Assembly: GCA_040756635.1 (NCBI GenBank)
Contig: JBFLYJ010000001.1
Coordinates: forward strand, 1-33,571
Direction of reading: 5' to 3'
Source of the DNA: Nitrospirota bacterium
Lineage (GTDB): Bacteria; Nitrospirota; Thermodesulfovibrionia; UBA6902
DNA length: 33,571 bases
The notes below the pieces were generated by a model. The model was not told the origin of the DNA and made no database searches. It saw only the letters and a list, made by a program, of their open reading frames with translations. Of the stretch, positions 7,825-22,128 are shown in pieces. Numbering within the stretch: position 1 is the first letter of the stretch; the number at the start of each line of letters is the position of its first letter. The position numbers were made by a program, and so were the translations under genes.

Positions 7825-8875
7825 GATCGATGCTTTTTTTAAATATATGATTGAGCATAAGGCGAGTGATTTGCATTTGAGCGCAGGGGCAAAGGCCAAA
7901 ATAAGGAAGCACGGCGAACTTGAAGAAATGGACTATCCTGAACTGACGAATGAAGCTGTTCAAAACCTCCTTTTTGAAATTACAACAGAGCAGCAGAAGG
8001 ACGCCTTCCTTGCCAAAAGAGACCTGGACTTCGCATATGAAATCCCCGGTGTCGCGCGATTCAGGGCGAACTATTTTGAGCAGAAAAGAGGGACTGGGGC
8101 CGTCTTCAGGGTCATCCCGACGAACATACTGTCAGTAGAGGAACTGAACCTGCCTCCGCAGATCCTTAAACTGACACAACTCAGCAGGGGGCTTGTCCTG
8201 GTGACGGGTCCGACAGGCAGCGGAAAGTCCACGACGCTCGCGGCAATTATTGATTACGTCAACCGGAACAGGAAAGACCACATACTGACAATCGAAGACC
8301 CGGTTGAATTTGTGCACCAGAACAAAGGCTGTCTTGTAAATCATCGTGAGATCGGCAACCATACCGAATCCTTTGCGTCGGCTCTTCGGGCTGCCCTCAG
8401 GGAAGACCCGGATGTCATTTTAGTAGGTGAAATGCGAGACCTTGAAACAATTGAGCTTGCCATAACCGCTGCAGAGACAGGGCATCTTGTCTTCGGCACA
8501 CTCCACACAAGTTCCGCGGCCAAGACAGTTGACCGTATCATAGACGCTTTCCCTGCAGGCCAGCAGGCCCAGATCAGGACAATGCTTTCGGAGTCGCTGA
8601 AGGGAGTCATATGTCAACAGCTTTTAAAGAGGATCGACCAGCCGGGACGTCTGGCCGCCCTTGAAATACTCTTTTGCAAAACAGCAATCGCAAACCTTAT
8701 CCGCGAGGGCAAGACCTTCCAGATCCCTTCCATGATACAAACGGGCAAAGGCGACGGTATGCAGCTTCTTGATCAGGCGATCATGGATTTTCTTATGAAA
8801 AAGCAGATTGCCCCTGAAGAGGCCTACCTGAAGGCAAACGACAAAAGCGCCTTTGAGAGGTTTATTAAAAAATAA
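7817..8875 (+). CDS. pilT: type IV pilus retraction ATPase PilT family
   Basis: The N-terminus ASDLHL, Walker A GPTGSGKST, Asp/His boxes and the PilT motif AIANLIREGK are present. The start overlaps the upstream stop by 8 nt. Confidence 0.9.
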   Translation: MAKIDAFFKYMIEHKASDLHLSAGAKAKIRKHGELEEMDYPELTNEAVQNLLFEITTEQQKDAFLAKRDLDFAYEIPGVARFRANYFEQKRGTGAVFRVIPTNILSVEELNLPPQILKLTQLSRGLVLVTGPTGSGKSTTLAAIIDYVNRNRKDHILTIEDPVEFVHQNKGCLVNHREIGNHTESFASALRAALREDPDVILVGEMRDLETIELAITAAETGHLVFGTLHTSSAAKTVDRIIDAFPAGQQAQIRTMLSESLKGVICQQLLKRIDQPGRLAALEILFCKTAIANLIREGKTFQIPSMIQTGKGDGMQLLDQAIMDFLMKKQIAPEEAYLKANDKSAFERFIKK

Positions 8876-9085
8876 CTCCCCTCACATCCGTCCGCAACAA
8901 ATTTATTATTCAGGTCAAACGCCTCATAACAGGCGCTTAAACCGCAGTCCAGCCTATAACAAACCCTGTCGCAATACAAGTCCCCGGCTTTCGGGTTTAA
9001 CAACATAGGTGTAATGCCTAAGATATTATCTTATAGGGTCATTAAAATTAAAATATAGACAGATAAAATCACAAAATTTAAAATT

Positions 9086-9104
9086 AATAATGATAAGCAG
9101 GTAG
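9086..9104. promoter_or_regulatory. weak Fur-box-like sequence upstream of the TonB-dependent receptor
   Basis: AATAATGATAAGCAGGTAG matches 12/19 positions of GATAATGATAATCATTATC. It lies 50 bp upstream of the ATG at 9154. Confidence 0.25.
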
Positions 9105-9153
9105 ATAATAACTACCCTTTAAATTATTTATTGTTGTAAAGCGAAATAGAACA

Positions 9154-11205
9154 ATGCTTAGAACTATCCCCCTAATTCTATTTCTTATTTCCTTGTATTC
9201 ATATTCCCTTGCGCAGGATTTTGCGGAGCTCAAATCAGAAACAGCCGAGGAACTGCTCATGTTCTTTGAAGAGGAGGAGCTTATGATCGCAACAAGAAGC
9301 GCAACACCTGTCCGAAAGGCACCCGCGATCGCAACGGTCATCACTGCCCAGGAAATACGTAACATGGGAGCCAGTAATGTAATGGACGTATTAAAGATGG
9401 TCCCAGGCATGGGAATAGCAAGAAACGAGCAGGGTTTTTTCATGCTTGAGGTAAGGGGAATCAGCACGGTCAAGTCCGAAAAGATTCTGTTGATGATCGA
9501 CGGTCATTCCCTGAATAAAAACGTTGCCGAGAGCGGCTTTTCTTACTTTGGCGATAATCTCAATATCAACAATATCAAACAGATCGAAATCATAAGAGGG
9601 CCCGGCTCCGCCCTGTACGGCGCCAACGCCTTTGTCGCAGTCATCAACATCAGTACAAAGAGTGCTGAGGATATAGACGGCGTCACAGCCACGGCCGGGG
9701 GAGGGAGCTTTGATACCCAGAAATACAACCTCCTTGCCGGCAAGACATTTGAGGACGGGTTGAGGATATTCAGCAGCATTGATTACCGGAAGACAAACGG
9801 GGCAAACCTCCGTATAGAAAAGGACAGTCTCTCGACAACCCCGTACTCAACCGCACCGGGAAATGCTGATACGCAGTTTGAAGCGGCCGATGTTTTTGTT
9901 AAAGCGACCTATAAAGACTTGACCTACAGTGGACACTATCTGGGAAATGACAGGGGGGTCTATATCGGGTTTGGAGCCGCGCTCACTGATCACAATTCCC
10001 TGGAATTGTATAATTACTGGCATGAGCTGAGTTACCGCTTTTCCGCGGTTGAGGGATTCTCTTCATTTGTAAAGATATATTTCAATCGGTTTGAACAGGA
10101 TGCAAGTATTGAACTGATGCCTGACGGCTATGCCGGATCATATCCCGATGGAATGATAGGAGGCCCGAAGGTCAAAGACAGAACAGTCGGAGGAGAGATA
10201 CAGTTTGATTATGACATTTCTGAGACAAATCATCTGCTTGCAGGTGTTGTGTATGAAGACATAAAACAATATGATGTTAAATCTATTTCGAATTTTAATC
10301 CTAATACCGGCGCATACCTTGGTTCGGTCCAGGACAGAGCATGGACCAGTTGGAACAGGGACACCAACCGGTATATATTTGCGGCCTATATACAGGATGA
10401 ATGGGGAATCCTGAATAATTTAAACCTGACCGCCGGAATACGGCACGACCGCTATAACGATTTCGGCGGTACGACCAACCCCAGGGCAGGATTAGTATGG
10501 AGTTTTCTTGAGAATGCAGATCTGAAGCTGCTTTACGGACAGGCATTCAGGGCGCCCAGTTTTACGGAGCTATATAATGATAATAACCCCTCTCTTATGG
10601 GGAACCAAGACCTTACACCTGAAAAGATAAAGACATATGAGGCAGGCCTTGGATACAGGTTTTCTGATCACTTCAGGATCGATCTGAATTATTTCTACAA
10701 TGACATCGACGATCTTATCATACGTGACAGCTCAACTTCTCCTGCAACAAATGCCAATCTTGGGGGAGCAGAGATCGACGGTGTTGAAGTCGTGCTGTCA
10801 GGGAACTATTCTCATGACAATTACTGGCAAATCACGTATTTCTGGCAGGACCCGGAAGACTCTGAAACCGGGGAGAGTATAGCATACGTGCCGCTTAACA
10901 GGGCAACTGCAGGAATTAATTATAGTTTTAATAAATATCTTAATGTGCACACCGATATACTGTGGACAGGTGAACGGTCAAGGCCGGACGGCGACACGAG
11001 GGACCCCGTGGCTTCTTACACGACAGTTGATCTTGCGTTGACCTTGAAGAACTTTTATAAGACCCTTGAGATACAGGGGACGGTACATAATTTGCTTGAC
11101 GAAGATTACGAAGATCCCGATGTATCGGGGGCGTCGAAGTATGTCCCCGGCGATTACCCGAGGGAGGGTATTTCCGGGCTGTTAAGTGTCAGGTATGAAT
11201 TTTGA
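9154..11205 (+). CDS. TonB-dependent outer-membrane receptor (paralog 1)
   Basis: It has a signal peptide ending SLAQD, a plug domain (IATRSATPVRKAPAIATVITAQEIRNMG, IEIIRGPGSALYGANAF), a beta-barrel and a terminal aromatic residue (VRYEF). Confidence 0.9.
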   Translation: MLRTIPLILFLISLYSYSLAQDFAELKSETAEELLMFFEEEELMIATRSATPVRKAPAIATVITAQEIRNMGASNVMDVLKMVPGMGIARNEQGFFMLEVRGISTVKSEKILLMIDGHSLNKNVAESGFSYFGDNLNINNIKQIEIIRGPGSALYGANAFVAVINISTKSAEDIDGVTATAGGGSFDTQKYNLLAGKTFEDGLRIFSSIDYRKTNGANLRIEKDSLSTTPYSTAPGNADTQFEAADVFVKATYKDLTYSGHYLGNDRGVYIGFGAALTDHNSLELYNYWHELSYRFSAVEGFSSFVKIYFNRFEQDASIELMPDGYAGSYPDGMIGGPKVKDRTVGGEIQFDYDISETNHLLAGVVYEDIKQYDVKSISNFNPNTGAYLGSVQDRAWTSWNRDTNRYIFAAYIQDEWGILNNLNLTAGIRHDRYNDFGGTTNPRAGLVWSFLENADLKLLYGQAFRAPSFTELYNDNNPSLMGNQDLTPEKIKTYEAGLGYRFSDHFRIDLNYFYNDIDDLIIRDSSTSPATNANLGGAEIDGVEVVLSGNYSHDNYWQITYFWQDPEDSETGESIAYVPLNRATAGINYSFNKYLNVHTDILWTGERSRPDGDTRDPVASYTTVDLALTLKNFYKTLEIQGTVHNLLDEDYEDPDVSGASKYVPGDYPREGISGLLSVRYEF

Positions 11206-11215
11206 TTGATAACCC

Positions 11216-11243
11216 GTAGGGGCGTAGCATGCTACGCCCCTAC
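11216..11243. repeat. REP-like perfect 28-bp palindrome (copy 1)
   Basis: GTAGGGGCGTAGCA/TGCTACGCCCCTAC is a perfect palindrome. It lies between the stop of receptor 1 and the start of receptor 2. Related copies occur at 14261 and 26564. Confidence 0.75.
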
Positions 11244-11291
11244 TACGATGACGGAATGTCGATAATCCTGCTGTCAACGAATGAGAACAGA

Positions 11292-13382
11292 ATGAATAAA
11301 TATTTATTTATTATTTTTATCTTATTGATTACCTGTTCAACTTCCTATGCCCAGGATCTCGCGGAACTCAAATCAGAAACAGCCGAGGAACTGCTCATGT
11401 TTTTTGAAGAGGAAGAGCTTGTTATAGCAACCCGTCATGAGACACCCGTCCGAAAGGCGCCCGCAATCGCAACGGTCATCACCGATAAAGAGATCAGGGA
11501 CATGGGGGCGAGAAATCTTGTGGACGTCCTGAAGATGGTCCCCGGTCTTGGAGTATCTATAAGTGAACAGGGATTTCATATGCTTGAGGCAAGAGGGATC
11601 AAGACTCTTTTATCCGAAAAAGTCCTTATGATGATAGACGGGCATTCTCTTAACCGGAACTTTGTAGGTTCAGCTTTCCGTCATTTTGACGATCTCCCTG
11701 TTGATAACATCAAACGAATTGAAATCGTGAGAGGCCCCGGTTCGGCGCTCTATGGAGCAAACGCCTTTGTTGCGGTCATAAATATCATCACAAAGAGCGC
11801 AGATGAAATAGACGGGCTGAGGTTGACTGCAGAGAGAGGCAGTTTTGATACGGAACGCTACAACCTGCTCGGCGGCGCATCAATCAAAGATAATTTCCGA
11901 TTAATGGGAAGCGTAGATTATTACAGGACCGACGGCGCAAAACTGAGGATAGAAGAGGACAGCACCTACGGAACGCCATGGGCCGTATCACCCGGAGACA
12001 CAGACCTGAGCAAAGAGAAAAAAGACGTATTCCTGAAAGCATCATATGGTGGTGTAACCTACAGGGGGCACTATATGACCAGGAGAGGCGGCTTCTATAT
12101 CGGGCTTGCTTCCGCCCTTACGGATGACCAGGATTATGAAATTGAATATTATTGGAACGAATTAAACTACGACCTCTCTGTGGCGAAAGGGCTTTCTGCG
12201 AACTTCAAGGTGTTTCTTGATCACTTCGAACAGCGGGGAACAATTGAATTAATGCCCGAGGGATTTCTCGTCGGGGTAATACCGGGAGGATTTCCTGACG
12301 GGCTGATAGGAGGCCCTAATCTGAAGAACGATACGTGGGGCTGTGAGGTCCAGCTGGACTACCACCTGCCGGATAATCACCACTTTATTGTCGGGGCGCT
12401 GTATGAAAAAATGAGGCAGCATCATGTAAGACGGATCTCCAATTACGCCCCCGCTACCCTGACTGTTCCCGTTCCGACACCGCTGACTGGAGGGGTACAG
12501 GATACTTCTTCTACAGTGGGGATAAACTGGAACAGGGATGCCAAGCGCGAAATATGGGCCGCGTTTGTACAGGATGAATGGGAAATAGTTGATGACCTTA
12601 GCCTCACAGCAGGCGTCCGTCATGATCATTACAGCGAATTCGGGGGCACTACAAACCCGAGGATCGGAATTGTGTGGGAAATTATGGAAGATGCCGACCT
12701 GAAGCTTCTTTACGGCAAGGCGTTCCGCGCCCCTGATTTCGCCGAGCTGTATACAGAGAACAATATACATTCCATGGGAAGTGAAGACCTCGACCCTGAA
12801 ACGATACAGACCTATGAAGCCGGCTTCAGTTTCAGTCCGGGGCCTTCGCTCTATATTGATCTGAACTATTTTTATAATGAGATTGAGAACAGGATTGACC
12901 TGGATGAGTCAGCAACTCCTTATCTTTTTACAAACGGCGGAGGCGCAGAGGTTGAAGGGATTGAGTTTGTGCTGAGAGCCCAGTACACCTCCAGCGATTA
13001 CTGGAAACTGTCCTATACATATCAGCATCCGGAGGATTCCGTCACGGGTTCAAGACTTTCAGATGTACCCCTGAACCGTGCCTCGGGAAGTATAAATTAC
13101 GGAGTTTCAAAATACCTGAATGTTCATACGGATGTGCTATGGACGGGCGAACGTTCGAGGCCCGACGGCGACACGAGGGGCCCCGTGGCATCTTACACGA
13201 CAGTTGATCTTGCATTGACATTAAAGAACTTTTATGAGACCCTTGAAATACAGGGAACAGTCTATAATCTCCTTGACGAGGACTATGAAGACCCTGATAC
13301 ATCGGGGGCCTCACAGCTTATTCCCGGAGATTATCCGAGAGAAGGGATTTCATGGATGATAAATGCGAGTTATAAATTTTGA
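11292..13382 (+). CDS. TonB-dependent outer-membrane receptor (paralog 2)
   Basis: The start is set at MNKYLFIIFILL... (signal peptide ending SYAQD). The plug and C-terminal barrel strands are nearly identical to paralog 1. The protein ends ASYKF. Confidence 0.9.
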   Translation: MNKYLFIIFILLITCSTSYAQDLAELKSETAEELLMFFEEEELVIATRHETPVRKAPAIATVITDKEIRDMGARNLVDVLKMVPGLGVSISEQGFHMLEARGIKTLLSEKVLMMIDGHSLNRNFVGSAFRHFDDLPVDNIKRIEIVRGPGSALYGANAFVAVINIITKSADEIDGLRLTAERGSFDTERYNLLGGASIKDNFRLMGSVDYYRTDGAKLRIEEDSTYGTPWAVSPGDTDLSKEKKDVFLKASYGGVTYRGHYMTRRGGFYIGLASALTDDQDYEIEYYWNELNYDLSVAKGLSANFKVFLDHFEQRGTIELMPEGFLVGVIPGGFPDGLIGGPNLKNDTWGCEVQLDYHLPDNHHFIVGALYEKMRQHHVRRISNYAPATLTVPVPTPLTGGVQDTSSTVGINWNRDAKREIWAAFVQDEWEIVDDLSLTAGVRHDHYSEFGGTTNPRIGIVWEIMEDADLKLLYGKAFRAPDFAELYTENNIHSMGSEDLDPETIQTYEAGFSFSPGPSLYIDLNYFYNEIENRIDLDESATPYLFTNGGGAEVEGIEFVLRAQYTSSDYWKLSYTYQHPEDSVTGSRLSDVPLNRASGSINYGVSKYLNVHTDVLWTGERSRPDGDTRGPVASYTTVDLALTLKNFYETLEIQGTVYNLLDEDYEDPDTSGASQLIPGDYPREGISWMINASYKF

Positions 13383-13422
13383 TTTGAAACCGGAATTATG
13401 ATAACTGCTGGTCCATCCCCGT

Positions 13423-14109
13423 CTATCTCAATCCCCTCAGCAGACCCAGGCTTTCATTGATCTTTTCAATCTCGTTTATTTCGAGTATGATGCTGATATC
13501 GGATTTCACGTTAAGCAGTTCCCTCAGAGCGTTAAGTTCCCTGCATCCGGGGGCCAAAGGCCAGTGGTCGGTGATACCCCCCCTCAGGCCGTTGTTCCTG
13601 TGGATATGAACAAAGCGGAGCTTTTCGATGACGGTCTCATCAAGGGACTGCACAAAGTCGACGGAGTCCAGCCCGGATGATTCTACGTGCCCGATATCGA
13701 GAGTGACCGAGTCCGCAAAATTGTTCCAGAACCAGTGAATGTCCCGGGTATTTGTGGAGTTTTCGAGGGAGACTTCTGTCACCTCCCTGAGTCTGTCGAG
13801 AGATTTTCTGAACATGCTTTCGGATTCTCCTGAAAGACGGCTGCCGTCGGGAGATTTCTCGTCGTGTAAAATCAGCGCGAGGTCCGCCAGCTCCGCCATT
13901 TCAAGAAGCTCACCAAATGTGTCCTGCTGCAAGAGAGAATACTTGACCGGATGTATCACGAAACGGACGCCGGCGTCTTTGCAGACGCGCACGCACTTTC
14001 TCATAAAATCAAGGCCGCCTTCCATGCCGCGGTATACTGATATCTGCAGCAGGTCAGCATCCCAGTAGTCTACCTCTTCCGGATAAAGCACCCGAGTTCC
14101 TATAAGCAT
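13423..14109 (-). CDS. xylose-isomerase-like TIM-barrel (sugar phosphate isomerase/epimerase family) protein
   Basis: It shows the pattern of conserved acidic/His residues typical of the AP-endonuclease-2/XylA-like TIM barrel (FVIHP..., LILHDE, SLENS, LDIGH, VHIHRN, ILEIN). The call is at family level only. Confidence 0.55.
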   Translation of the reverse strand: MLIGTRVLYPEEVDYWDADLLQISVYRGMEGGLDFMRKCVRVCKDAGVRFVIHPVKYSLLQQDTFGELLEMAELADLALILHDEKSPDGSRLSGESESMFRKSLDRLREVTEVSLENSTNTRDIHWFWNNFADSVTLDIGHVESSGLDSVDFVQSLDETVIEKLRFVHIHRNNGLRGGITDHWPLAPGCRELNALRELLNVKSDISIILEINEIEKINESLGLLRGLR

Positions 14110-14260
14110 AGTTTTATTTTAAACCATGAGAGGGCAAAAGTGGGCCGGACGGGGAAACTCTCATCTCAAGAACATGTCATTGCGAATCCTGCCGCCTGTT
14201 CATAAGAAGTGAGGATAATGATATCGCATATATCGAAGATGTTCAATGGATTGTAAGCAT

Positions 14261-14288
14261 GTAGGGGCGTAGCATGCTACGCCCCTGC
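14261..14288. repeat. REP-like palindrome (copy 2)
   Basis: GTAGGGGCGTAGCATGCTACGCCCCTGC is identical to copy 1 except at the second-to-last base. It lies between the selenoprotein gene and the TIM-barrel gene. Confidence 0.75.
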
Positions 14289-14352
14289 TTTCGCGCTGAT
14301 AGAACAGTTGCAACGAGGCGGAGCCTGTCTATTAAGATCCCCAGTCCTGTTA

Positions 14353-14574
14353 TTAAATTTCATTTATTATTTTTATGATTTCGCTTTCATCCGGGAAAAC
14401 ACCGGTCTTTTGTTTTGAGTAAATCAATTTTCCATCCACAGCGATATCGAAGATCCCACTGCTGCCTTCGATTAGTTTCGCTTCAATGTCACATGTTTCC
14501 TTTATCTTCGCTGCCAGGCCGGCAGCTTTCTGCAGAAAGTTTCAGGGGACACAATAAGTAATAGTTATTTTCAT
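14353..14574 (-). CDS. SelW/SelT/Rdx-family selenoprotein (73 aa) with in-frame TGA = selenocysteine at codon 11
   Basis: My own translation is MKITITYCVP-U-NFLQKAAGLAAKIKETCDIEAKLIEGSSGIFDIAVDGKLIYSKQKTGVFPDESEIIKIINEI. The CxxU redox motif and the ...G.F.I..DG.LI.SK...G.FP pattern are typical of the Rdx fold. AGGAG sits 8 nt upstream of the ATG. The TGA is at 14544-14542. The gene is absent from the ORF track because of the TGA. Confidence 0.8.
14510..14526 (-). promoter_or_regulatory. candidate bacterial SECIS hairpin
   Basis: On the mRNA, the hairpin GCUGCC-GGCCU-GGCAGC starts 15 nt after the UGA, and its apical loop lies about 21-25 nt after the UGA. I remember this distance as being in the range used by bacterial SECIS models. 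Confidence 0.45.
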
Positions 14575-14600
14575 AGTATATTCTCCTTTATATGAATGTA

Positions 14601-14655
14601 TGGAGTCAGGTCTCCATTTATCACTGTACAACTGTAGAATGGAGACATGACTCCA
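14601..14655. repeat. strong 18-bp-stem hairpin between the helicase gene end and the selenoprotein gene start (left edge of the defence island)
   Basis: TGGAGTCAGGTCTCCATT (14601-14618) pairs with AATGGAGACATGACTCCA (14638-14655) at 17/18 positions, over a 19-nt loop. No T run follows on either strand. Confidence 0.6.
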
Positions 14656-14688
14656 ATTATAACTTCTATACTCAGTACAGATAGAAGG

Positions 14689-16629
14689 CTAGTTTGCCTC
14701 AAGCTCGTCTTCTAGATGAATCGCTGTCGACGGAAACAGATCCAACCCTCTAATCTGTTGTCGTGCAGCAGAGACATCCGTTGTAAAGAGAACCACGACC
14801 AGATCTTTCAGAGAGCGTGTACAACAAACGTAAAAAAGCCGTCTAGTTCTCTCTATGGACGTTTCCTTACCCTCACGTCTACTTGCCTCCTCCCTATCTG
14901 AGAGCGGCCTGATACCCAAGTACTTGTCATAGGAGAATTGCACGTGGGTTCCCTCATCATCGTCTAGAACTACAAGCACCCGCTCAAACTCAGCACCCTT
15001 AATTCCTTGTTGAGTTGAGAACGGAGAATCTTCTTTGACATACCTGTAGTAGCCCCAGAACTGAGATGCAGGGCAAGCGAGAAAAGCATCCATGGCATGA
15101 ATTTCCTTCGTAATTTCGTCGTCATTATCTTCTGCAGCATCCTCATCTTCGTTTCCCTGAGTTTCGACTGGAATTGGTAAATCCAAATACGAGAGCATCC
15201 GCGGGTCAAGGTCAATTAACCTCCATTCATGAATGCTACGAAGAACATCGCCATTGGTTGCAGCTAACCCTGGCTCCATCATCAGTTGCAGCCTCTCAGT
15301 AAATCGACGCAGGTCGTCAAGTCTTTCAGATACGTTGATCCCACTTAGGCTCTTTTGCTGAAGTAGGGGTGATTGGCTTCTCAGAACTTGTATTGCCTCA
15401 AACTCGCGTCCCTGTTTGACAGCATTTACAAGTGGTAAAATAAAGTTATAAAAAGGACGCACTGGCCACGCAGTCGCATCCAAGAATCCGCTTTTGAACT
15501 TCTCGGGGGCCTTATCGTTCAGTGCAGCATATAGATCGCCAAATCCAAGCCTTTTGGCGGCCATTCTGTGGACAATGACCAGAACTTTCACGGTTTTATC
15601 GTCTTCACCTGATTGCCATGCTGGATCAATATACTTTCGCGCTGCCCAAGCACATAACTGTGCTAGCCGATGATCACGCCTCTCGTCAATAGGTAGTATG
15701 AAGATATCCGCATTGCCCTCTACGTTTACCAGTGCGTCTTCTGCACCTATCATCCGGCCTCGTGTCTGAACTAGCCCGTCACCGTCTCGACGAATTGCAT
15801 TGGCAACCCTGAGTACCGCTGTGGGACAGCGGAAATTCTCTGACTTCGTTATGTTCGTCCACCCAGCAGCAGCAGAAACTGAACCGATTCCTGTCAGGTA
15901 TATGCGTTGCATCGGATCTCCAAAAAAACCGAGACAAAAATGCCCCTGCTGGCTCTCTTCCACTGCTTTTAAAGCTGCTACGACATTCGCCATCGCGTCT
16001 TGGCTCTCATCGACAAAAAGGAAAGGATATTGTTGAGCGAGTATGCTCTGTAGCAATGGGCGCTCGATTATGAACTGTGGAACCATTTTTATAATGTCAT
16101 CATGGCCCAGCACACCGTTTACATAGTCACTACCTGTCCCATAGGTAAACGAAAGGACTCGCCCAATTCGTGCCTTCTGTCGTTCGTAGCGGTCTATATC
16201 GTTCTGGTTCTTGTCACGCGTACGTTGTTGAACACGAGGCCCAAAATTGGCCGCTGTCTCTCGAAGTTCAACGAGTCTTTCATCAATTCGCTTTACTACC
16301 CACTCGTGGATGTCTGACTGAAAAGACCTGATTAGAGACCATAGAAAACTGTGAATGGTCGAAACATGAACGAGGGGATTATTGCCTACGTCCGTCCAAA
16401 TCTCATCGGCAGCGATCTCCATGTAAGTTATGCATGCAATTTGCTGTTTGCGAAGCTTCAGCCGTCCACTATGTACTTTGAGTGCTTCGGTGAGTCCTTT
16501 AATCAAAGAAGTGGTTTTCCCAGATCCGGCTCCCGCAACCATCAAGAAGCTGCGTGTTGGTGAGGCATTCAAGCAGCGATAAAGCTCTAGATCCGCCTCA
16601 GTGTCTTTTTGCTGCGCGCGGCTAGTCAT
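14689..16629 (-). CDS. UvrD/Rep-like superfamily 1 helicase (GajB-like partner of the OLD nuclease), 646 aa
   Basis: SF1 motifs are present: Walker A AGAGSGKTT, motif II FVDESQD, ENFRCP, GIKGAEFERVLVV and YVCCTRS. The ATG overlaps the stop of the upstream OLD gene (ATGA at 16626-16629). Confidence 0.85.
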   Translation of the reverse strand: MTSRAQQKDTEADLELYRCLNASPTRSFLMVAGAGSGKTTSLIKGLTEALKVHSGRLKLRKQQIACITYMEIAADEIWTDVGNNPLVHVSTIHSFLWSLIRSFQSDIHEWVVKRIDERLVELRETAANFGPRVQQRTRDKNQNDIDRYERQKARIGRVLSFTYGTGSDYVNGVLGHDDIIKMVPQFIIERPLLQSILAQQYPFLFVDESQDAMANVVAALKAVEESQQGHFCLGFFGDPMQRIYLTGIGSVSAAAGWTNITKSENFRCPTAVLRVANAIRRDGDGLVQTRGRMIGAEDALVNVEGNADIFILPIDERRDHRLAQLCAWAARKYIDPAWQSGEDDKTVKVLVIVHRMAAKRLGFGDLYAALNDKAPEKFKSGFLDATAWPVRPFYNFILPLVNAVKQGREFEAIQVLRSQSPLLQQKSLSGINVSERLDDLRRFTERLQLMMEPGLAATNGDVLRSIHEWRLIDLDPRMLSYLDLPIPVETQGNEDEDAAEDNDDEITKEIHAMDAFLACPASQFWGYYRYVKEDSPFSTQQGIKGAEFERVLVVLDDDEGTHVQFSYDKYLGIRPLSDREEASRREGKETSIERTRRLFYVCCTRSLKDLVVVLFTTDVSAARQQIRGLDLFPSTAIHLEDELEAN

Positions 16630-18905
16630 TCCCCAGCATCCTCTATAGTCCCCACTTCGCCTACTTCGGCAGGAGCCTCAGTTCCGGCTACCTCCGGCTG
16701 AATTGTCGGTTGATCAAGACTTATATTGCTAGCGAGCCAGCGCAAACCTTCCTTGATATAGGATGGCACGTTCCAGTTCGCAGGACTTTCAGTTAGAACT
16801 CCCAAGGCGAACTTCGTTTTATCGAATGACTTCCCCTTGATTCGCTTGTGAAGGCCAGCCGCAAGATCGCTGGGTGATTCAAGAGTACCGCGAAGCTTGA
16901 GGCCGAGATGTCTCCGTTCAATAGCTTGGCACCACGTCGAGTTCTCAAGACCAAAGGCCTCCTCCAGTGTTCTTCCGCAAAGATTGGCATTCAAACCATT
17001 CCATGTTACATTCGTTGGGACTTGATAAGCGACGCGTATCTTAAAGCCATTTCCGCCTTCCGCCTCATATAACTTGGCCTCGTCCGTTACCGCATGCAGA
17101 TCTGCAACCGTTTGCTTTTTGGGTATCCACTGGATCAAAGTCTGGTTTGAAGTTAGCGCGCCAGACTCGGATGGCAAACACGCTGTGCCGCGTTTCTTTA
17201 CTGGCGGCTCACCCGTTTCGGCATTTGGTACTTCAAACTCGGTATCATCATCTTCATTTTCCTCGCCAGTCGCAACGGGTTTCACGCTGTCCAAATCGGT
17301 AATTACAAGTGCAACAAGGCCGAGGAATTCAAGCAGAGTTTTGAAGCGATGGGCAAAAGCACCGCCTACTTCTAAGATAGAAACGCAGGCCGACCTCAGG
17401 GATGCCACTTCTCTTTCCTCCTCAATCATAACAGGGAGCAGAAGTCGTTCGACATTACCTTCAACCAAAATAGCTGCGTCGGCAAAGAAGAGGTCGCAGT
17501 GCGTCAGTTTCAGGTATCTTTGCAGGAAATCCCGCTCGTTAGGGTTCTTATTATAGAATGCAGACAGATTCAATACCTCGGTCGTCTGCTCACTGCCGAT
17601 GCTCTGACGCCTGAAATATCTAATTGGTTGAAAGCCGCGCTCATAAAGGATATGAGGTGAGTGTGTAGTTACTATCGTCTGGCTTTGGAAAACGCCTCTG
17701 TCCGCTTCGCTACCCTTCATAAGATCCAAGACATTACGAATGAAAACCTGCTGAAGCTGAGCATGAAGGTGCACCTCGGGTTCCTCGATGAATACTAGGT
17801 GCAGCGGAGCACGCTGCTCCTTGTCTGCAACCCAACCGGCATGGTAGTCGAGTATATCGACTACTATATAGATGAGGTTCTTGAACCCGAGGCCGCTATG
17901 AGTGTCGGGCAGCCTTAAGGCCGCATCACCGTCGCCAAGAACATAGTGAACTCGAGTATCTTGGGTGCTCATGAGCGTCGCTGGATTGAGCGCCGACTTG
18001 ATCTCTAGTCGAGGATTATGGAGACCGGGGTACCCAAGTTTTGACAGGCTACCGAGAGTGTCTTTGAAAACATCGGCCAAGTGTTCATTAAGTCCCAGTT
18101 CGGAGTCGAACAATGCCCTAAGTGCGTTGTAGTCCTCTTGTCGTTGCTCTAGGTTCCGCTTGTAAAATCGACTCAACCGTTTGGAGAGATCTTCGGCTCG
18201 CCCACCGCTCGTCTCAGATAGGTGCCGCTGGGCTTTTACGTTATCAATTTTGACAAGAGATTTCAGAATTGCCGCGCCGCTAGGCTCTTTACCAAGCTGT
18301 AGAGGCATATACTCGGCCTTCTGCTGGTAAAAGTCATCGAATTGACCACGATCAAGGACATAGTACTTGAACTCAAACTCGCTGCGTAATATCTCGTTTT
18401 TTAGAAGATAGTCGCTCAGGCTCTTCGGCCATGGCACATACCTCTCGTTTGCCCGCGGCTGCAAAGCTGCGGCTTTGCTACGTGCCTCTGCTCGTGCTGC
18501 CCGGAATCTCCCAAGAAGCTCTACAGAGTCGCGCGCGGCAAACTCTATCCGCATGCCAACCTGTGTCCCCCGCCATGCCGTACTCGGTAATAGAGGTATC
18601 ACGAGGTATAAATCATTCGCCGCAACCTCGAACCAAAGATCAGCGCTTATCGAAGGCAATTCGGGCTGTTCCACGCCATCCTCTGGCAGTTCGCCAATCG
18701 CGTTAAACTTTGCCCAACATGCCAAGCTAAAATCGTAGAGAGAAAAATTATCCTTCGCGCCCGATACAAATGTGTTAAGAGCCTGAGTTGCTGATGTTTT
18801 ACCACTATTGTTCGACCCGACAAAGATCGATATATCCGAAGCAAGCTCTATATAGACATCACGTAGGCGCCTATAATTCTTTATCCTGTATGAGTGCAGA
18901 TACAT
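16626..18905 (-). CDS. OLD-family ATP-dependent endonuclease (ABC-type ATPase + TOPRIM), GajA-like, 759 aa
   Basis: Motifs are Walker A GSNNSGKT (res 30-37), SGLG (337-340), LVFIEEPEVHLH (370-381), TTHSPH (413-418), the TOPRIM Glu in ILVEGNVE (E482), DxD in VITDLDS (537-539) and TLEEAF (646-651). GGAGG sits 9 nt upstream of the ATG. Confidence 0.85.
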   Translation of the reverse strand: MYLHSYRIKNYRRLRDVYIELASDISIFVGSNNSGKTSATQALNTFVSGAKDNFSLYDFSLACWAKFNAIGELPEDGVEQPELPSISADLWFEVAANDLYLVIPLLPSTAWRGTQVGMRIEFAARDSVELLGRFRAARAEARSKAAALQPRANERYVPWPKSLSDYLLKNEILRSEFEFKYYVLDRGQFDDFYQQKAEYMPLQLGKEPSGAAILKSLVKIDNVKAQRHLSETSGGRAEDLSKRLSRFYKRNLEQRQEDYNALRALFDSELGLNEHLADVFKDTLGSLSKLGYPGLHNPRLEIKSALNPATLMSTQDTRVHYVLGDGDAALRLPDTHSGLGFKNLIYIVVDILDYHAGWVADKEQRAPLHLVFIEEPEVHLHAQLQQVFIRNVLDLMKGSEADRGVFQSQTIVTTHSPHILYERGFQPIRYFRRQSIGSEQTTEVLNLSAFYNKNPNERDFLQRYLKLTHCDLFFADAAILVEGNVERLLLPVMIEEEREVASLRSACVSILEVGGAFAHRFKTLLEFLGLVALVITDLDSVKPVATGEENEDDDTEFEVPNAETGEPPVKKRGTACLPSESGALTSNQTLIQWIPKKQTVADLHAVTDEAKLYEAEGGNGFKIRVAYQVPTNVTWNGLNANLCGRTLEEAFGLENSTWCQAIERRHLGLKLRGTLESPSDLAAGLHKRIKGKSFDKTKFALGVLTESPANWNVPSYIKEGLRWLASNISLDQPTIQPEVAGTEAPAEVGEVGTIEDAGE

Positions 18906-18986
18906 ACCACCTTACCTCCACTGGTTTGTGGTCATCGCATTAAATTGACCATCCACGGTTCTAAGTTGCGCGATTGATCGGACTAG

Positions 18987-19027
18987 CCAACGTCATGCGT
19001 TTATAGACCAACGTCAAAGTCTGTGAA
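18987..19027 (-). promoter_or_regulatory. candidate promoter and operator of the OLD/helicase operon
   Basis: On the minus strand, TTCACA-N16-TATAAA (plus 19022-19027 and 19000-19005) is a candidate promoter. The direct repeat TGACGTTGG x2 (plus CCAACGTCA at 18987-18995 and 19008-19016, 21-bp period) overlaps the spacer and the predicted start site. Confidence 0.3.
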
Positions 19028-19126
19028 TCGAACCCTTGAGAACATTAGTATTTTGAAGACTAATTTGTACATCAAAAAACAAACACGCTCAATAAAGGCA
19101 CTGCTGATTCAATTTCACAGCACTTA

Positions 19127-19136
19127 CTGTTGGGTG
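19127..19136. repeat. 10-nt arm (CTGTTGGGTG) abutting the RT stop codon; inverted partner at 20767-20776
   Basis: It is the perfect reverse complement of CACCCAACAG at 20767-20776. The two arms bracket the RT ORF, one 0 nt after the stop and the other 19 nt before the ATG. Confidence 0.5.
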
Positions 19137-20747
19137 TTATTTAGATAATAATGCACAAATAGATTTATCTATGATATCACCCCTTGATGAAACCATTTTT
19201 ATCCAATGCTTCATTTCATCTTCTGATAATATTTCGGCGGAGTATAAAACTGATCTTCTATCCAATGGCCCTAAAACATCGAGTCCATCCTTATGATCCT
19301 TAACCCATACTCTGTCATTTCTTCTTTTTGCAATCAGAGCCTGCTCTCGTATTCGTATTATTTTTTTATAGTTTTGTGGAAAATCTATGATATTAAAATG
19401 ATTGTTTTGGAGAAGATAAGATACCCACACATTTATGAATGGAATGTCCATAATATGACTATCCAATATTTTTTCAAAATATCTTTTATATCTTTTAACT
19501 TGCGGTTCACTAAGTGTTTTGTTTAAGTAAATAACCACCTCACGAATTAATGGAATTAGTGCTTCAAAATTTCTCAACACAATTGGTGCAAGACTTCTGA
19601 TTCGATATCTCGACGCATTTCTAAATATGTGTCTCAATAAAGCAACATCTAACTTCTTTGAGTCTAATTCTTTATTTAACATGTTCTTATATGCGTCAGT
19701 AAGGATTTCAAAGTGTTCATTTTCAGCAACTTCATTATAAATATTTTCGTAAGCTTCTTCGTATGTATCTTCTGAATCTTCAAAATAATCGTATGTTGAT
19801 CCGGTAAATTCAAGCTCAAGCTCTTCAAATTTTTCATTAGCTAATTCTTCAGTTTTCTTCATAACTTCAATTTCTTCCTCTTGTTCTTCATCCTTATATT
19901 TATATTTCATATACCATTGAACTGACTTGATTCGAGATTTTTCACCTGAAAAAACTAATCTGTGAGAACTATATAGATATTTTGTTAGCTCGTGGAATAT
20001 AAAGGATGCATCTTCTTCTTTATTAAAAAAAATAATTATATCGTCTACCCATCTCACAAAATCACGTGTATAACTAAGTATTTTCTTATCTATATCAGCC
20101 ATGATAGCTTCAGCTAATACAATGCTTGCTGCGGGTCCAACTGGAATCCCCCTTGATGTTTTAGTATTTAAATTCATCAAAAAGTCTTCAAGGATTTTGG
20201 CTAAGTCGTTATAAAGGGGACCTCCTGCTTCCGATATAATATTACGAATTCGATGTGTATATATCTGGTTATAAAAATCAGTGATATCACAAAAAAGTAC
20301 AAATCCCCTCTTATATTGTTTAGCTAATTTTTTTATTTGTGTTTTATAGTTTTTCCAGCCATCATCGCCTCTCTGAAAGAAAGAGCCATTTAAATCAGGC
20401 TTGACTCTATAGGAGCATGCAATTTTCTCTGTCTCAGGAATGCGAAATTCTTCTATTATGTTATGTAACTGATATACAAGGGCTGTATAGATTAATGAAT
20501 CAATAGGATCCAATTGATGAACAATTCTATATGTTCCATTTACCTTTGGTGAAAGGCTGATTAATGGGGATTTCGGAATATAATTTAGTAAATCTAGTGA
20601 AAGAATATGTTTTTTAACAAGAGGCCAATTATGTGAGATAGCATCATATTCAAAAGATTTAGGATAAAAATCACTGTCGTAATATCTTTTAAGATGTTTT
20701 AATGCCCACTCTAATGCGTTTTCTTCTACTGATATCATAAAAGCCAT
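19137..20747 (-). CDS. stand-alone reverse transcriptase, Abi/UG (defence-associated, DRT-like) type with helical C-terminal domain, 536 aa
   Basis: RT palm motifs are present: FCDITDFYNQI (motif A, D154), SRGIPVGPAASIVLAEAIM (motif B), RWVDDIIIFF (motif C, D235-D236) and RLVFSGEKSRI. An acidic Tyr-rich linker (res ~285-346) and a ~190-aa helical tail follow. The gene is about 30% GC by eye and has no SD. Confidence 0.8.
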   Translation of the reverse strand: MAFMISVEENALEWALKHLKRYYDSDFYPKSFEYDAISHNWPLVKKHILSLDLLNYIPKSPLISLSPKVNGTYRIVHQLDPIDSLIYTALVYQLHNIIEEFRIPETEKIACSYRVKPDLNGSFFQRGDDGWKNYKTQIKKLAKQYKRGFVLFCDITDFYNQIYTHRIRNIISEAGGPLYNDLAKILEDFLMNLNTKTSRGIPVGPAASIVLAEAIMADIDKKILSYTRDFVRWVDDIIIFFNKEEDASFIFHELTKYLYSSHRLVFSGEKSRIKSVQWYMKYKYKDEEQEEEIEVMKKTEELANEKFEELELEFTGSTYDYFEDSEDTYEEAYENIYNEVAENEHFEILTDAYKNMLNKELDSKKLDVALLRHIFRNASRYRIRSLAPIVLRNFEALIPLIREVVIYLNKTLSEPQVKRYKRYFEKILDSHIMDIPFINVWVSYLLQNNHFNIIDFPQNYKKIIRIREQALIAKRRNDRVWVKDHKDGLDVLGPLDRRSVLYSAEILSEDEMKHWIKMVSSRGDIIDKSICALLSK

Positions 20748-20766
20748 AGCATTATTTATTTGTTTT

Positions 20767-20776
20767 CACCCAACAG
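20767..20776. repeat. 10-nt arm (CACCCAACAG) in the RT 5' leader; partner at 19127-19136
   Basis: See 19127-19136. In the minus-strand transcript, the 5' leader CUGUUGGGUG could pair with CACCCAACAG directly after the stop codon. Confidence 0.5.
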
Positions 20777-20780
20777 GTAT

Positions 20781-20824
20781 TATCACACCAGTTGATCATA
20801 TCGAATATGTACCCTGTTGTGATA
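20781..20824 (-). ncRNA. hairpin in the RT upstream region (possible structured leader or RT-associated ncRNA)
   Basis: TATCACACCAG (20781-20791) pairs with CTGTTGTGATA (20814-20824) at 10/11 positions over a 22-nt loop. A mutually exclusive alternative pairs CAACAGG (20771-20777) with CCTGTTG (20813-20819). The intergenic region is 254 bp with no ORF. Confidence 0.3.
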
Positions 20825-21001
20825 TTCAATACTGTCATTTCTTGGTACGTTTTTATTTATTGAATTAATAATAAAGCGTGAATTTAAGAGCCCTTGCCTT
20901 GATCTTAAAACCCGTTATCAGCAACTGAGTGATGGCTAAATATTACATCAAGGGGGGGTGAAATACAAGGATAATTTTAGTTGAAACGGCAGGGAAGGTC
21001 G

Positions 21002-21664
21002 TTACTCAAACTGAGACTTGAGGCCGTTGAATTCCTCTTTGAGCTTATCAAATTCACCGCGCAGGATTGCCATCTCTTCTTCCAGTTTCGCGATCCTCTC
21101 GTTATCGGCCCGTACCCTAAGGGTCGCAGCTTCTTCGGAAATGGCAGGTTCCTCCTCTCCGATCTCGGGCATTCCGGAGAGCAGGTGCGCGAAGCGGGGT
21201 TCCTTTCTTCCGGCCTGGCGCGGGAGTTTTACGACCATGGGCGGCTCCTTTTCCGCGAGCCTTGTCAGGATCTCCTCGACCTCCTGAAGGCCCGAGAATT
21301 TGTGCATGCGGTCGGCGCGGTTTCTTATCTCCCCCACCGTCTGCGGTCCGCGCAGCATTAATTCGCACATCACCGCGACGGAATCAGACGGGAGGTTGAA
21401 TTTCTGCGGGAATGAGTGCTGGTATTTCGGGACGCGGCTGTCGGCCTTGTAGATCTTTTCGACCAGACCCTTTTCACGGAGGCTGTCGAGTCCGCGGACG
21501 ACGGTTGTCTCTTCATAGGAGACGATCGGGCTGCGGTTGGATTTCTGGTTGCACGCGCTGGTCAGTGCGTTCAGGGTGAGAGGATAATAGTCCGGAGTGG
21601 TGATCTCCTTTTCGATCAGGCAGCCCAGAATACGCGCTTCGATGTCATTAAGCAGTATGTCCAT
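21002..21664 (-). CDS. yceH: YceH (DUF480 / UPF0502) family protein
   Basis: The N-terminus LNDIEARILGCLIEKEITTPDYYPLTLNALTSACNQKSNR is characteristic of DUF480. It has a coiled-coil C-terminus. Confidence 0.85.
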   Translation of the reverse strand: MDILLNDIEARILGCLIEKEITTPDYYPLTLNALTSACNQKSNRSPIVSYEETTVVRGLDSLREKGLVEKIYKADSRVPKYQHSFPQKFNLPSDSVAVMCELMLRGPQTVGEIRNRADRMHKFSGLQEVEEILTRLAEKEPPMVVKLPRQAGRKEPRFAHLLSGMPEIGEEEPAISEEAATLRVRADNERIAKLEEEMAILRGEFDKLKEEFNGLKSQFE

Positions 21665-21669
21665 TCAGA

Positions 21670-22128
21670 TTATGGATTATCGTCCACTGCCACGTAATCG
21701 CTGCCGGTTATATATTTCTCCAGGTCCTGTATCTTGACCTGCTGTTCATTAATGATGGCATTGACGATATCTCCTATCGTGACAACGCCGATTAACTGGT
21801 TATTTTCAAAGACCGGCATATGACGGCAGTGAATGGTCGTCATAAGGGCCATGGCCTCTTCAACGGTCTTGTCAGGTGTTATGGAATATACTTCTTTTGT
21901 CATTAATTCTCCGACCGTTGTTTCCTTGGAAGACTTGCCTTTAAGGATGACCTTACGGGCATAGTCTCTCTCTGAAAAAAGACCCACGAACTTCCCGTCG
22001 TCAATGACCATCAGTGCTCCGATATCTTTTTCCGCCAGCATCTCCAGCGCCTTGTATGTCGTTTCCTTTGAGCCGATGGACCAGATTTTTTTGCTCTTTG
22101 ATCTGATAACATCCTGAATTTTTAACAT
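21670..22128 (-). CDS. CBS-pair (Bateman) domain protein
   Basis: Two CBS repeats are present (DIGALMVIDDGKFVGLFSERD and HMPVFENNQLIGVVTIGD). It has no other domain. Confidence 0.85.
   Translation of the reverse strand: MLKIQDVIRSKSKKIWSIGSKETTYKALEMLAEKDIGALMVIDDGKFVGLFSERDYARKVILKGKSSKETTVGELMTKEVYSITPDKTVEEAMALMTTIHCRHMPVFENNQLIGVVTIGDIVNAIINEQQVKIQDLEKYITGSDYVAVDDNP

Follow-up and report, generated by a model that had tools for sequence, protein, structure and literature searches.

Among the defence-associated reverse transcriptases (DRTs), the UG7 family was named DRT type 8 (DRT8) by Mestre et al. 2022, who described two variants that follow the phylogeny (PMC9226505). One variant carries a linked PD-(D/E)XK nuclease-like gene ('cluster 17') and protects against T5 in a manner that needs the active sites of both the reverse transcriptase (RT) and the nuclease, while the other, comprising about half of the members, has no associated gene and stands alone; the authors suggested that members lacking such a gene may rely on nucleases in trans (PMC9226505). 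The catalytic Asp-Asp pair was needed for defence in the tested DRT8 member and no noncoding RNA (ncRNA) has been described for UG7 (PMC9226505), and in a 2026 review the mechanism of DRT8 is given as not established (PMC13213688). Here we describe an RT gene on a 33,571-nucleotide (nt) contig from a Nitrospirota bacterium (JBFLYJ010000001.1), the whole of which we call the window. A perfect 10-nt inverted repeat brackets this gene, and an earlier reading of the DNA (the original prediction) had taken the repeat and a nearby hairpin for possible parts of a functional RNA. We hold with fair confidence that the gene encodes a stand-alone DRT8 RT at the edge of an islet of DRT8 and Gabija, that it is an ex-integron cassette, and that its enzyme works without an ncRNA.

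Related enzymes provide a frame for the protein. DRT4 and DRT6 are hexamers that make untemplated, random single-stranded DNA (ssDNA) covalently primed on a tyrosine, and this DNA turns toxic once it is protected against exonucleases by a DNA-binding protein of the phage; AbiA primes on Tyr298 or Tyr303, in the flexible segment linking its RT and alphaRep domains, and the location of the priming residue differs between families (PMC12783706). In PMC13174585, untemplated synthesis is attributed to class 1 DRTs and the ncRNA-templated systems make up class 2. Integron cassettes provide a frame for the flanks: they are known stores of defence systems (Darracq et al., Kieffer et al., preprints), their recombination sites follow the consensus R' GTTRRRY and R'' RYYYAAC with crossover after the first G of R' (PMC12901181), and cassettes can insert in genomes outside integrons, at attG sites of a non-classical type (Loot et al. 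2024, cited in PMC12614218).

The RT gene and the features that belong directly to it are the following, in window coordinates:

19137 to 20747, minus strand: DRT8 (UG7) RT open reading frame (ORF) of 536 amino acids (aa), with Pfam RVT_1 and PADLOC Drt8 matches
20040 to 20045, minus strand: codons of the catalytic residues D235 and D236 (palm VDD, residues 234-236), from the sequence and alignments A1 and A4
20748 to 21001, minus strand: AT-rich spacer from the yceH (DUF480) stop to the RT start, without a conserved RNA

The 536-aa ORF and its RT palm motifs are present as the original prediction described them. That prediction had been unable to assign the protein to a named DRT class; in a profile search, PADLOC Drt8 matched it at 432 bits (E 1.1e-129), aligning residues 7-533 with profile positions 2-488 of 493, and the runner-up profile, RT_UG21, reached 121 bits. 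Retron, group II intron and diversity-generating retroelement (DGR) RTs were set aside as relatives, as they align only with the ~280-residue RT core and at poorer E-values. In all, 666 homologues of the window RT were retrieved, and D235 and D236 are invariant among the 117 homologues aligned; a metagenome scan with the single protein gave 41 pattern matches and no relatives. We also collected homologous loci, 80 from a genome scan and 11 from look-ups of the closest proteins (L numbers below). A PD-(D/E)XK 'cluster 17' gene was not found beside the window RT, whose neighbours are yceH upstream and GajA downstream, and neither flanking spacer wholly contains an ORF of at least 40 aa. Given these neighbours and the missing nuclease partner, we place the window RT in the stand-alone variant of DRT8, which leaves its membership in the family unaffected. 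BLAST clustering of neighbour ORFs across 80 homologous loci found no recurrent neighbour (the largest cluster had 4 members), and PADLOC, run on ten upstream neighbour ORFs of homologues, returned only assorted other defence genes. Judged by profile and gene context, the window RT is a DRT type 8 (UG7) enzyme, a class 1 UG/Abi RT without a PD-(D/E)XK partner. The original prediction had cited DRT2 and DRT9 as precedents; UG7 is class 1, whereas the ncRNA-dependent DRT2 and DRT9 are class 2. DRT3 is a further DRT that depends on an ncRNA.

The low guanine-cytosine (GC) content noted earlier is borne out, at 31% in the ORF, 35% in the upstream spacer (254 nt) and 42% in the downstream spacer (231 nt) against 47% in the rest of the window. 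In most of the loci L001-L080 the DRT8 gene likewise lies below its flanks in GC, often by ~10 percentage points and in any host phylum, so the low GC of the window gene reflects the family and is no peculiarity of this locus. Three in-frame ATGs fall within the span of the ORF's first four codons (MAFM..., window 20738-20747). The NCBI record, a Nitrospirota metagenome-assembled genome (MAG) in which the contig is the whole window, annotates the RT from the third of these (20738), and this is probably the true start, giving a 533-aa protein in agreement with the N-termini of homologues as well as with that annotation. As originally observed, no purine-rich Shine-Dalgarno sequence precedes either ATG, whereas close relatives carry AAGGA or AGAGGA at that position. 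A promoter and terminator scan returned promoter-like sites more rarely than in shuffles, and a terminator was not found.

We next set out the sites that flank the gene, with a slash marking the point of crossover or its counterpart:

20767 to 20776, minus strand: 5' arm of the inverted repeat, CTG/TTGGGTG, which holds the core site R' GTTGGGT at 20774-20768
19127 to 19136, minus strand: 3' arm of the inverted repeat, CACCCAACAG on the coding strand, which holds the inverse core R'' ACCCAAC at 19135-19129
20773 to 20835, minus strand: imperfect hairpin directly 5' of the crossover, which includes the hairpin at 20781-20824 (DNA fold)
19087 to 19135, minus strand: putative degenerate attC of the RT cassette, made up of ACCCAAC, a short imperfect hairpin and an R'-like A/TTGAGC; its boundary is uncertain

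The repeat exists as predicted: CACCCAACAG at 20767-20776 stands 19 nt before the first ATG, and its exact complement CTGTTGGGTG at 19127-19136 abuts the stop codon. Such repeats are not rare in themselves, as there are 13 perfect inverted pairs of 10 nt in the 2.1-kb region where dinucleotide shuffles have 7.8. A pair with its arms on either side of the ORF, both in the 60-nt flanks, is less common, being found in 0.3% of shuffles (P ~0.003, for a test chosen after seeing the data). Both arms fit the integron consensus. The upstream one reads GTTGGGT (for GTTRRRY), 27 nt before the ATG, and the downstream one reads ACCCAAC (for RYYYAAC), one base after the TAA, where it complements the 5' TTGGGT; over their full length the arms are complementary at 10 of 10 positions. 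The crossover would thus fall between 20774 and 20773, and the cassette would begin with TTGGGT. In a circular cassette, the 5' TTRRRY and the 3' RYYYAA are the two halves of one attC and are therefore complementary, which is why the arms of such a cassette pair. A complete attC has the order R''-L''...L'-R' with G/TT, is ~55-150 nt long and folds into an imperfect hairpin. In the same region we observed an imperfect 22-nt direct repeat (17/22; TTGATGTA..A..TAG.C.TCA, coding strand) at 19054-19075 and 20930-20951, 77% identical, which brackets the AT-rich module almost exactly. As a candidate att duplication it was set aside as probably due to chance, similar repeats arising by chance in the same output.

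The real support for the significance of the repeat comes from the homologues and not from the window alone. Flank statistics cover the 65 full-length loci with enough flank. A GTTNNNN 11-60 nt before the start, together with its exact complement at most 22 nt from the stop, occurs in 9 of these 65 loci where 0.27 are expected (P ~8e-12), and the nine loci use seven distinct 7-mers (GTTGGGT, GTTGGGC, GTTAGAA, GTTATAA, GTTGGCG, GTTGTGT and GTTAGGC). Inverted repeats of at least 10 nt between a locus' own flanks were found in 5 of the 65, against 0.55% of permuted flank pairs. When the strict GTTRRRY/RYYYAAC regular expression was used by itself, the flanks were not enriched overall; only complementarity within a locus is informative. 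In the two closest cassette-type relatives, L081 and L090, GTTGGGC precedes the gene and GCCCAAC follows it, a compensating change at the same positions as in the window, and when the closest loci are aligned, what they share upstream of the ATG starts at G/TT and spans only the short 5' untranslated region (UTR).

In several loci the layout is that of integron cassettes. The RT of L081, the closest relative of all (71% aa identity), is the third cassette of a three-cassette array, in which the 5' GTTRRRY differs from cassette to cassette and in each is the exact complement of that cassette's 3' RYYYAAC; the ORFs are separated by sites of 64 and 74 nt that form hairpins. In L016 the RT sits between two copies of a ~140-nt repeat that starts with ..AAC and ends with GTT, and L045 and L054 hold arrays of several attC-like sites. 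L031 parallels the window: there a single cassette is flanked by proS and a gene for an aldo-keto reductase. Taken together, these patterns indicate that the inverted repeat is most likely the boundary signature of an integron cassette, and that the window RT is or was such a cassette. Its 5' end would lie at the crossover G/TTGGGT and its 3' end would be its own attC, running from ACCCAAC at the stop codon; the repeat would be a scar of mobility with no part in the mechanism of the enzyme.

Some of these loci show further peculiarities. At L054 4001-6082, the RT cassette of the array is shortened to 424 aa and a gene for an IS3-family transposase (rve domains) follows directly on the opposite strand. 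L082, L083, L089 and L091 have ..CAAT instead of ..CAAC after the stop. A subgroup of 68-69% identity (L086, L089 and L091) has a different flanking direct repeat, GT.GTATATT..TATGTT.GGCAT (L086 4950-4975; L089 ~70-95 and ~1840-1865; L091 ~40-65 and ~1855-1880), of which one copy immediately precedes the RT and another follows the stop by 115-170 nt in L089 and L091; this suggests another attC type or some other recombination site.

The hairpin upstream of the window's crossover fits the same scheme. The 10/11-base-pair hairpin reported at 20781-20824 exists, the larger structure around it has TCACAAC and G/TT ~57 nt apart, and in L081, L090, L045 and L016 an attC hairpin sits at the equivalent of position 20773-20835. 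No sequence match to the upstream hairpin was found in other loci. It may be the relic of a neighbouring or preceding attC. We also ran a crude attC scan (AAC...GTT 45-145 nt apart, R box at least 6/7, constrained DNA fold), which found sites in L045 and L054 and none beside the window RT; the scan is too strict where the R' half comes from the next cassette.

To characterize the protein, we modelled it with AlphaFold2 (AF2) from 117 sequences, obtaining a predicted local distance difference test (pLDDT) score of 93.6 and a predicted template modelling score (pTM) of 0.90. In this model the RT domain extends to about residue 285 and helices occupy residues 287-535; a long helix comes after the RT domain, then a disordered loop and a helical C-terminal domain, in agreement with the helical domain that had been proposed to follow an acidic, Tyr-rich linker. 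Residues 317-320 form the sole disordered loop and the only stretch with pLDDT below 50. A Foldseek search against the PDB placed DRT6 (9wy8), DRT4 (9vdo) and UG15 first, then AbiK, Abi-P2 and AbiA, all aligned over the full length; the entries aligned in this way include 9wy8, 9vdo, 7r07, 7r08 and 8oz7, and the window protein likewise has an RT domain and a C-terminal alphaRep-type helical domain in one chain. DRT9 and DRT2 ranked lower, most of their matches being limited to the RT core.

Within the disordered loop lies one further feature:

19791 to 19793, minus strand: codon of Y319, in a P-Y-type motif of the disordered acidic linker, a candidate priming tyrosine

By its fold and class, the window RT would act like DRT4, DRT6 and the Abi polymerases: an oligomer would make ssDNA without a template, primed on its own tyrosine, and this untemplated synthesis would lead to abortive infection. 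The priming residue may be Y319, whose P-Y motif within the disordered linker is conserved, and an ncRNA would not be needed. Y319, usually with a proline before it, is kept in 60 of 67 family members, down to ~30% identity. The position aligned with Y125 of DRT4 is W, F or Y in the DRT8 family and is thus not the priming residue there. The original suggestion of a priming tyrosine in the linker therefore stands in part: the conservation of Y319 and the precedent of AbiA make it plausible, while the richness in tyrosine and the acidity that had been stressed are not conserved, linker length and acidity varying across the family. We place more confidence in the general mode of action than in Y319 as the residue; that protein-primed synthesis starts from Y319 is a tentative proposal, which we would sooner doubt than assert.

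The RT is not alone at its locus, and its surroundings comprise the following:

14285 to 21001, no strand: inserted defence islet with the RT module, Gabija and a small selenoprotein-like ORF (synteny)
16626 to 18905, minus strand: GajA, an OLD-family ATPase with a TOPRIM nuclease (PADLOC GajA, E 3e-267; Pfam AAA_15 and OLD-like TOPRIM)
14689 to 16629, minus strand: GajB-like UvrD helicase (Pfam UvrD-helicase and AAA_19), which overlaps the GajA stop

GajA and GajB form a complete Gabija system of ~50% GC, laid out as an overlapping operon on the same strand as the RT, and the RT gene, which had been called an orphan, in fact abuts this operon. The GC of GajA makes a separate acquisition from the RT probable. 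The 6.7-kb islet is absent from the related Nitrospirota contigs L092, L094 and L095, which have neither RT nor Gabija and share the gene order PsiE, CBS, yceH, a 234-aa gene, T2SSE, MshEN, ArsR, SBF and the rest of ars. Nucleotide homology with the three contigs ends at the yceH stop (21003) and resumes at 14133-14152, a break and resumption that point to a 6.7-kb insertion of two defence systems differing in base composition. A recombinase or transposase was not found in the islet with Pfam. The original view that this defence RT belongs to the UG/Abi lineage, arrived by horizontal transfer and has a helical C-terminal domain is thus upheld by profile, synteny, AF2 model and Foldseek alike.

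Several further observations concern the islet and its vicinity. A GC-rich perfect palindrome, GGGGCGTAGCATGCTACGCCCC, occurs at window positions 14259-14284, where it marks the right edge of the insertion, and again at 11215-11243, as well as at L092 8694-8719, right after yceH; it is probably a terminator or an element like the repetitive extragenic palindromic (REP) sequences. Inside the islet, right after gajB, a small ORF at 14355-14573 (minus strand) reads MKITITYCVP-TGA-NFLQKAAGLAAKIKETC...IINEI, with a CxxU-like motif, an in-frame TGA at ~14541-14543 and the palindrome CTTTCTGCAGAAAG immediately after. By its sequence this looks like a SelW/Rdx-type selenoprotein gene with a hairpin resembling a selenocysteine insertion sequence (SECIS). 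Outside the islet, comparison with the related Nitrospirota contigs shows a second insertion at 8872-13445, which holds two tandem TonB-dependent receptor genes, located between a 228-aa gene and the T2SSE/MshEN pair.

A number of points weigh against the picture drawn above. The candidate attC measures only ~49 nt, ends in A/TTGAGC (19093-19087) in place of the canonical G/TT, and folds weakly (bottom strand -7.0 kcal/mol, z -1.3); A/TT is found in L081 (~3289) and L090 (~1872) as well, where the site upstream of each RT is G/TT. An integrase or tyrosine recombinase was not found with Pfam among 25 ORFs of the 33.5-kb contig, including all 18 of at least 200 aa, nor was an attC array found anywhere in the contig, which has at most one attC-like relic upstream. 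AT-rich foreign DNA reaches ~225 nt upstream of the crossover, so the unit that moved was larger than one cassette, and the occurrence of the signature in only 9 of 65 loci means that most DRT8 genes are not cassettes. As for the enzyme, Y113 (67/67) and Y407 (65/67) are conserved at least as well as Y319; untemplated, Tyr-primed synthesis is ascribed to the window RT by analogy alone; and the sole tested DRT8 is of the variant requiring PD-(D/E)XK, which makes defence by the stand-alone variant a presumption from its relatives. Since integrase and array are missing and the attC is degenerate in its 3' half, the cassette probably became fixed away from an integron or came on a fragment of an array; with both ends obeying the cassette rules, we call it an ex-integron or stranded cassette.

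These points must be set against what other explanations can account for. The one originally favoured, in which the flanking 10-mers and the hairpin work as RNA, whether as a structured leader, as an ncRNA template or scaffold as in DRT2 and DRT9, or by circularising the mRNA through 5'/3' pairing, has some appeal: the arms would pair in a full-length transcript, the local hairpin is modestly more stable than shuffles (DNA fold -11.1 kcal/mol, z -2.4, 3/200 shuffles as good), the CAACAG/CTGTTG core is present in three copies, and some UG/Abi RTs do require an adjacent ncRNA (PMC9226505). The upstream region as a whole, however, is no more structured than its shuffles, its 254 nt folding at -46.6 kcal/mol against -45.1 +/- 5.0 (RNA fold, z -0.30), and an Rfam scan of 18000-22000 at a permissive threshold found no match. 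Neither spacer matches the ~90 homologous loci beyond chance 12-13-mers (nhmmer, blastn-short), and many homologues have no room for an RNA upstream or downstream, with gaps of -22 to 20 nt or the next ORF within ~50 nt. The repeat always ends in GTT/AAC at fixed positions and belongs, in several loci, to attC sites that are repeated; UG7 falls in class 1, and the fold is nearest to the ncRNA-free DRT4, DRT6 and Abi enzymes. With flanks that are not conserved and that obey the rule of integron cassettes instead, an RNA function is very improbable. Equally improbable, in our estimate, is a single composite system of RT and Gabija in which GajA stands in for the PD-(D/E)XK effector. In its favour, gajA follows the RT on the same strand after 231 nt, the tested DRT8 depends on a nuclease, and use of nucleases in trans has been suggested for stand-alone members (PMC9226505); against this, a GajA-like neighbour does not recur among the 80 homologous loci, the neighbours being varied, the GC contents are 31% and 50%, and GajA/GajB is a complete and self-sufficient known system.

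Other alternatives dispute how the gene travelled. That repeat and hairpin are a coincidence of AT-rich sequence and the RT arrived otherwise, for instance with a defence island by homologous recombination, would agree with the abundance of perfect 10-nt inverted pairs here, with the integrase and canonical attC not found in the window and with an AT-rich module that exceeds the span between the arms. We regard it as unlikely in view of the placement of the arms in both 60-nt flanks, their fit to both integron core consensuses, the compensating change in L081 and L090 and the very strong excess across the family. The repeats could instead be the ends of another mobile unit, that is, sites at which a tyrosine or serine recombinase not of the integron kind acts, or the terminal inverted repeats (TIRs) of a small non-autonomous transposon. 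The A/TT of the 3' R' candidates in the window, L081 and L090, the different direct repeat of the L086/L089/L091 subgroup and the 22-nt direct repeats around the whole AT-rich module would suit such a unit, though the islet yielded no recombinase or transposase and the 22-nt repeat, at its modest identity, keeps chance-level company. L016, L045, L048 and L081, moreover, show the integron pattern (GTT.../...AAC near the ORF and a hairpin site after each ORF) with co-directional small ORFs in cassettes that are each self-complementary, and we consider this explanation quite unlikely. Finally, the RT might copy its own transcript, whose ends are attC halves, into ssDNA that folds as a recombinogenic attC, so that the cassette is mobilised via RNA. 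If true, RT cassettes would be more than passive cargo, and such regeneration through an RNA intermediate would touch the long-standing puzzle of the origin of integron cassettes; but nothing supports it, the class and fold of the enzyme favour untemplated synthesis, cassettes are a minority within the family, and the idea is scarcely credible.

An integron cassette that became stranded beside Gabija thus remains our preferred reading. An unassigned RT now has a name, as a stand-alone variant of DRT8, and an account of its flanks based on RNA is replaced by one based on mobility. By its sequence signatures, DRT8 is a recurring integron cassette, found in Bacteroidota, a Balneolaceae MAG, Latescibacterota, Beta- and Gammaproteobacteria and, here, Nitrospirota. 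We did not find DRT8 in integron cassettes stated in the integron-defence literature searched: the texts of the Darracq et al. and Kieffer et al. preprints mention no DRT or other RT, and neither DRT nor Retron occurs in the one Darracq preprint supplement file searched. DRT8 cassettes extend both the size and the type of the defence genes moved by integrons. Two points appear worth passing on, namely the presence of DRT8 in cassettes across phyla, and the conserved linker tyrosine (P-Y) in the sole disordered loop of the protein.

Compared with known systems, the window RT shares with the class 2 DRT2 and DRT9 the UG/Abi lineage and a single RT gene. It differs in that an upstream ncRNA, conserved and expressed at a high level, provides the template for theirs, whereas none is conserved at DRT8 loci, and in that they rank lower by fold. 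DRT4 (UG15), DRT6 (UG12), AbiK, Abi-P2 and AbiA are its best structural matches over the whole protein, with template modelling (TM) scores of 0.55-0.62 to DRT6 and DRT4; like it, they are single-gene systems that join an RT to an alphaRep-like domain, and the conserved tyrosine in a flexible linker recalls AbiA. Identity to the window RT is only 13-16%, and the primer Y125 of DRT4 lies in the palm, at a position that is a non-conserved W, F or Y in the window family. With the DRT8 of Mestre et al. 2022 (PMC9226505), the window RT has in common a full-length profile match, the RT followed by a helical C-terminal domain, the invariant catalytic Asp-Asp pair, a position adjoining other defence genes and the lack of a described ncRNA; unlike the tested DRT8, which required a nuclease, it stands alone, and its host is a Nitrospirota MAG.

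As regards mobility, attG insertions (Loot et al. 2024), or single attC sites without an integrase, resemble the locus in being lone cassette-like units between housekeeping genes, a layout that L031 shows as well. They differ in that the left junction of the foreign DNA here lies ~225 nt upstream of the crossover, so that insertion of one cassette at yceH would explain only part of it. Relative to the defence cassettes of integrons (Darracq et al., Kieffer et al.), 1.6 kb is large, and the window copy lies outside any integron with a degenerate attC. Like them, it is a single compact gene with a short 5' UTR that starts from G/TTRRRY and with RYYYAAC at its stop codon, and its homologues are found in attC arrays.

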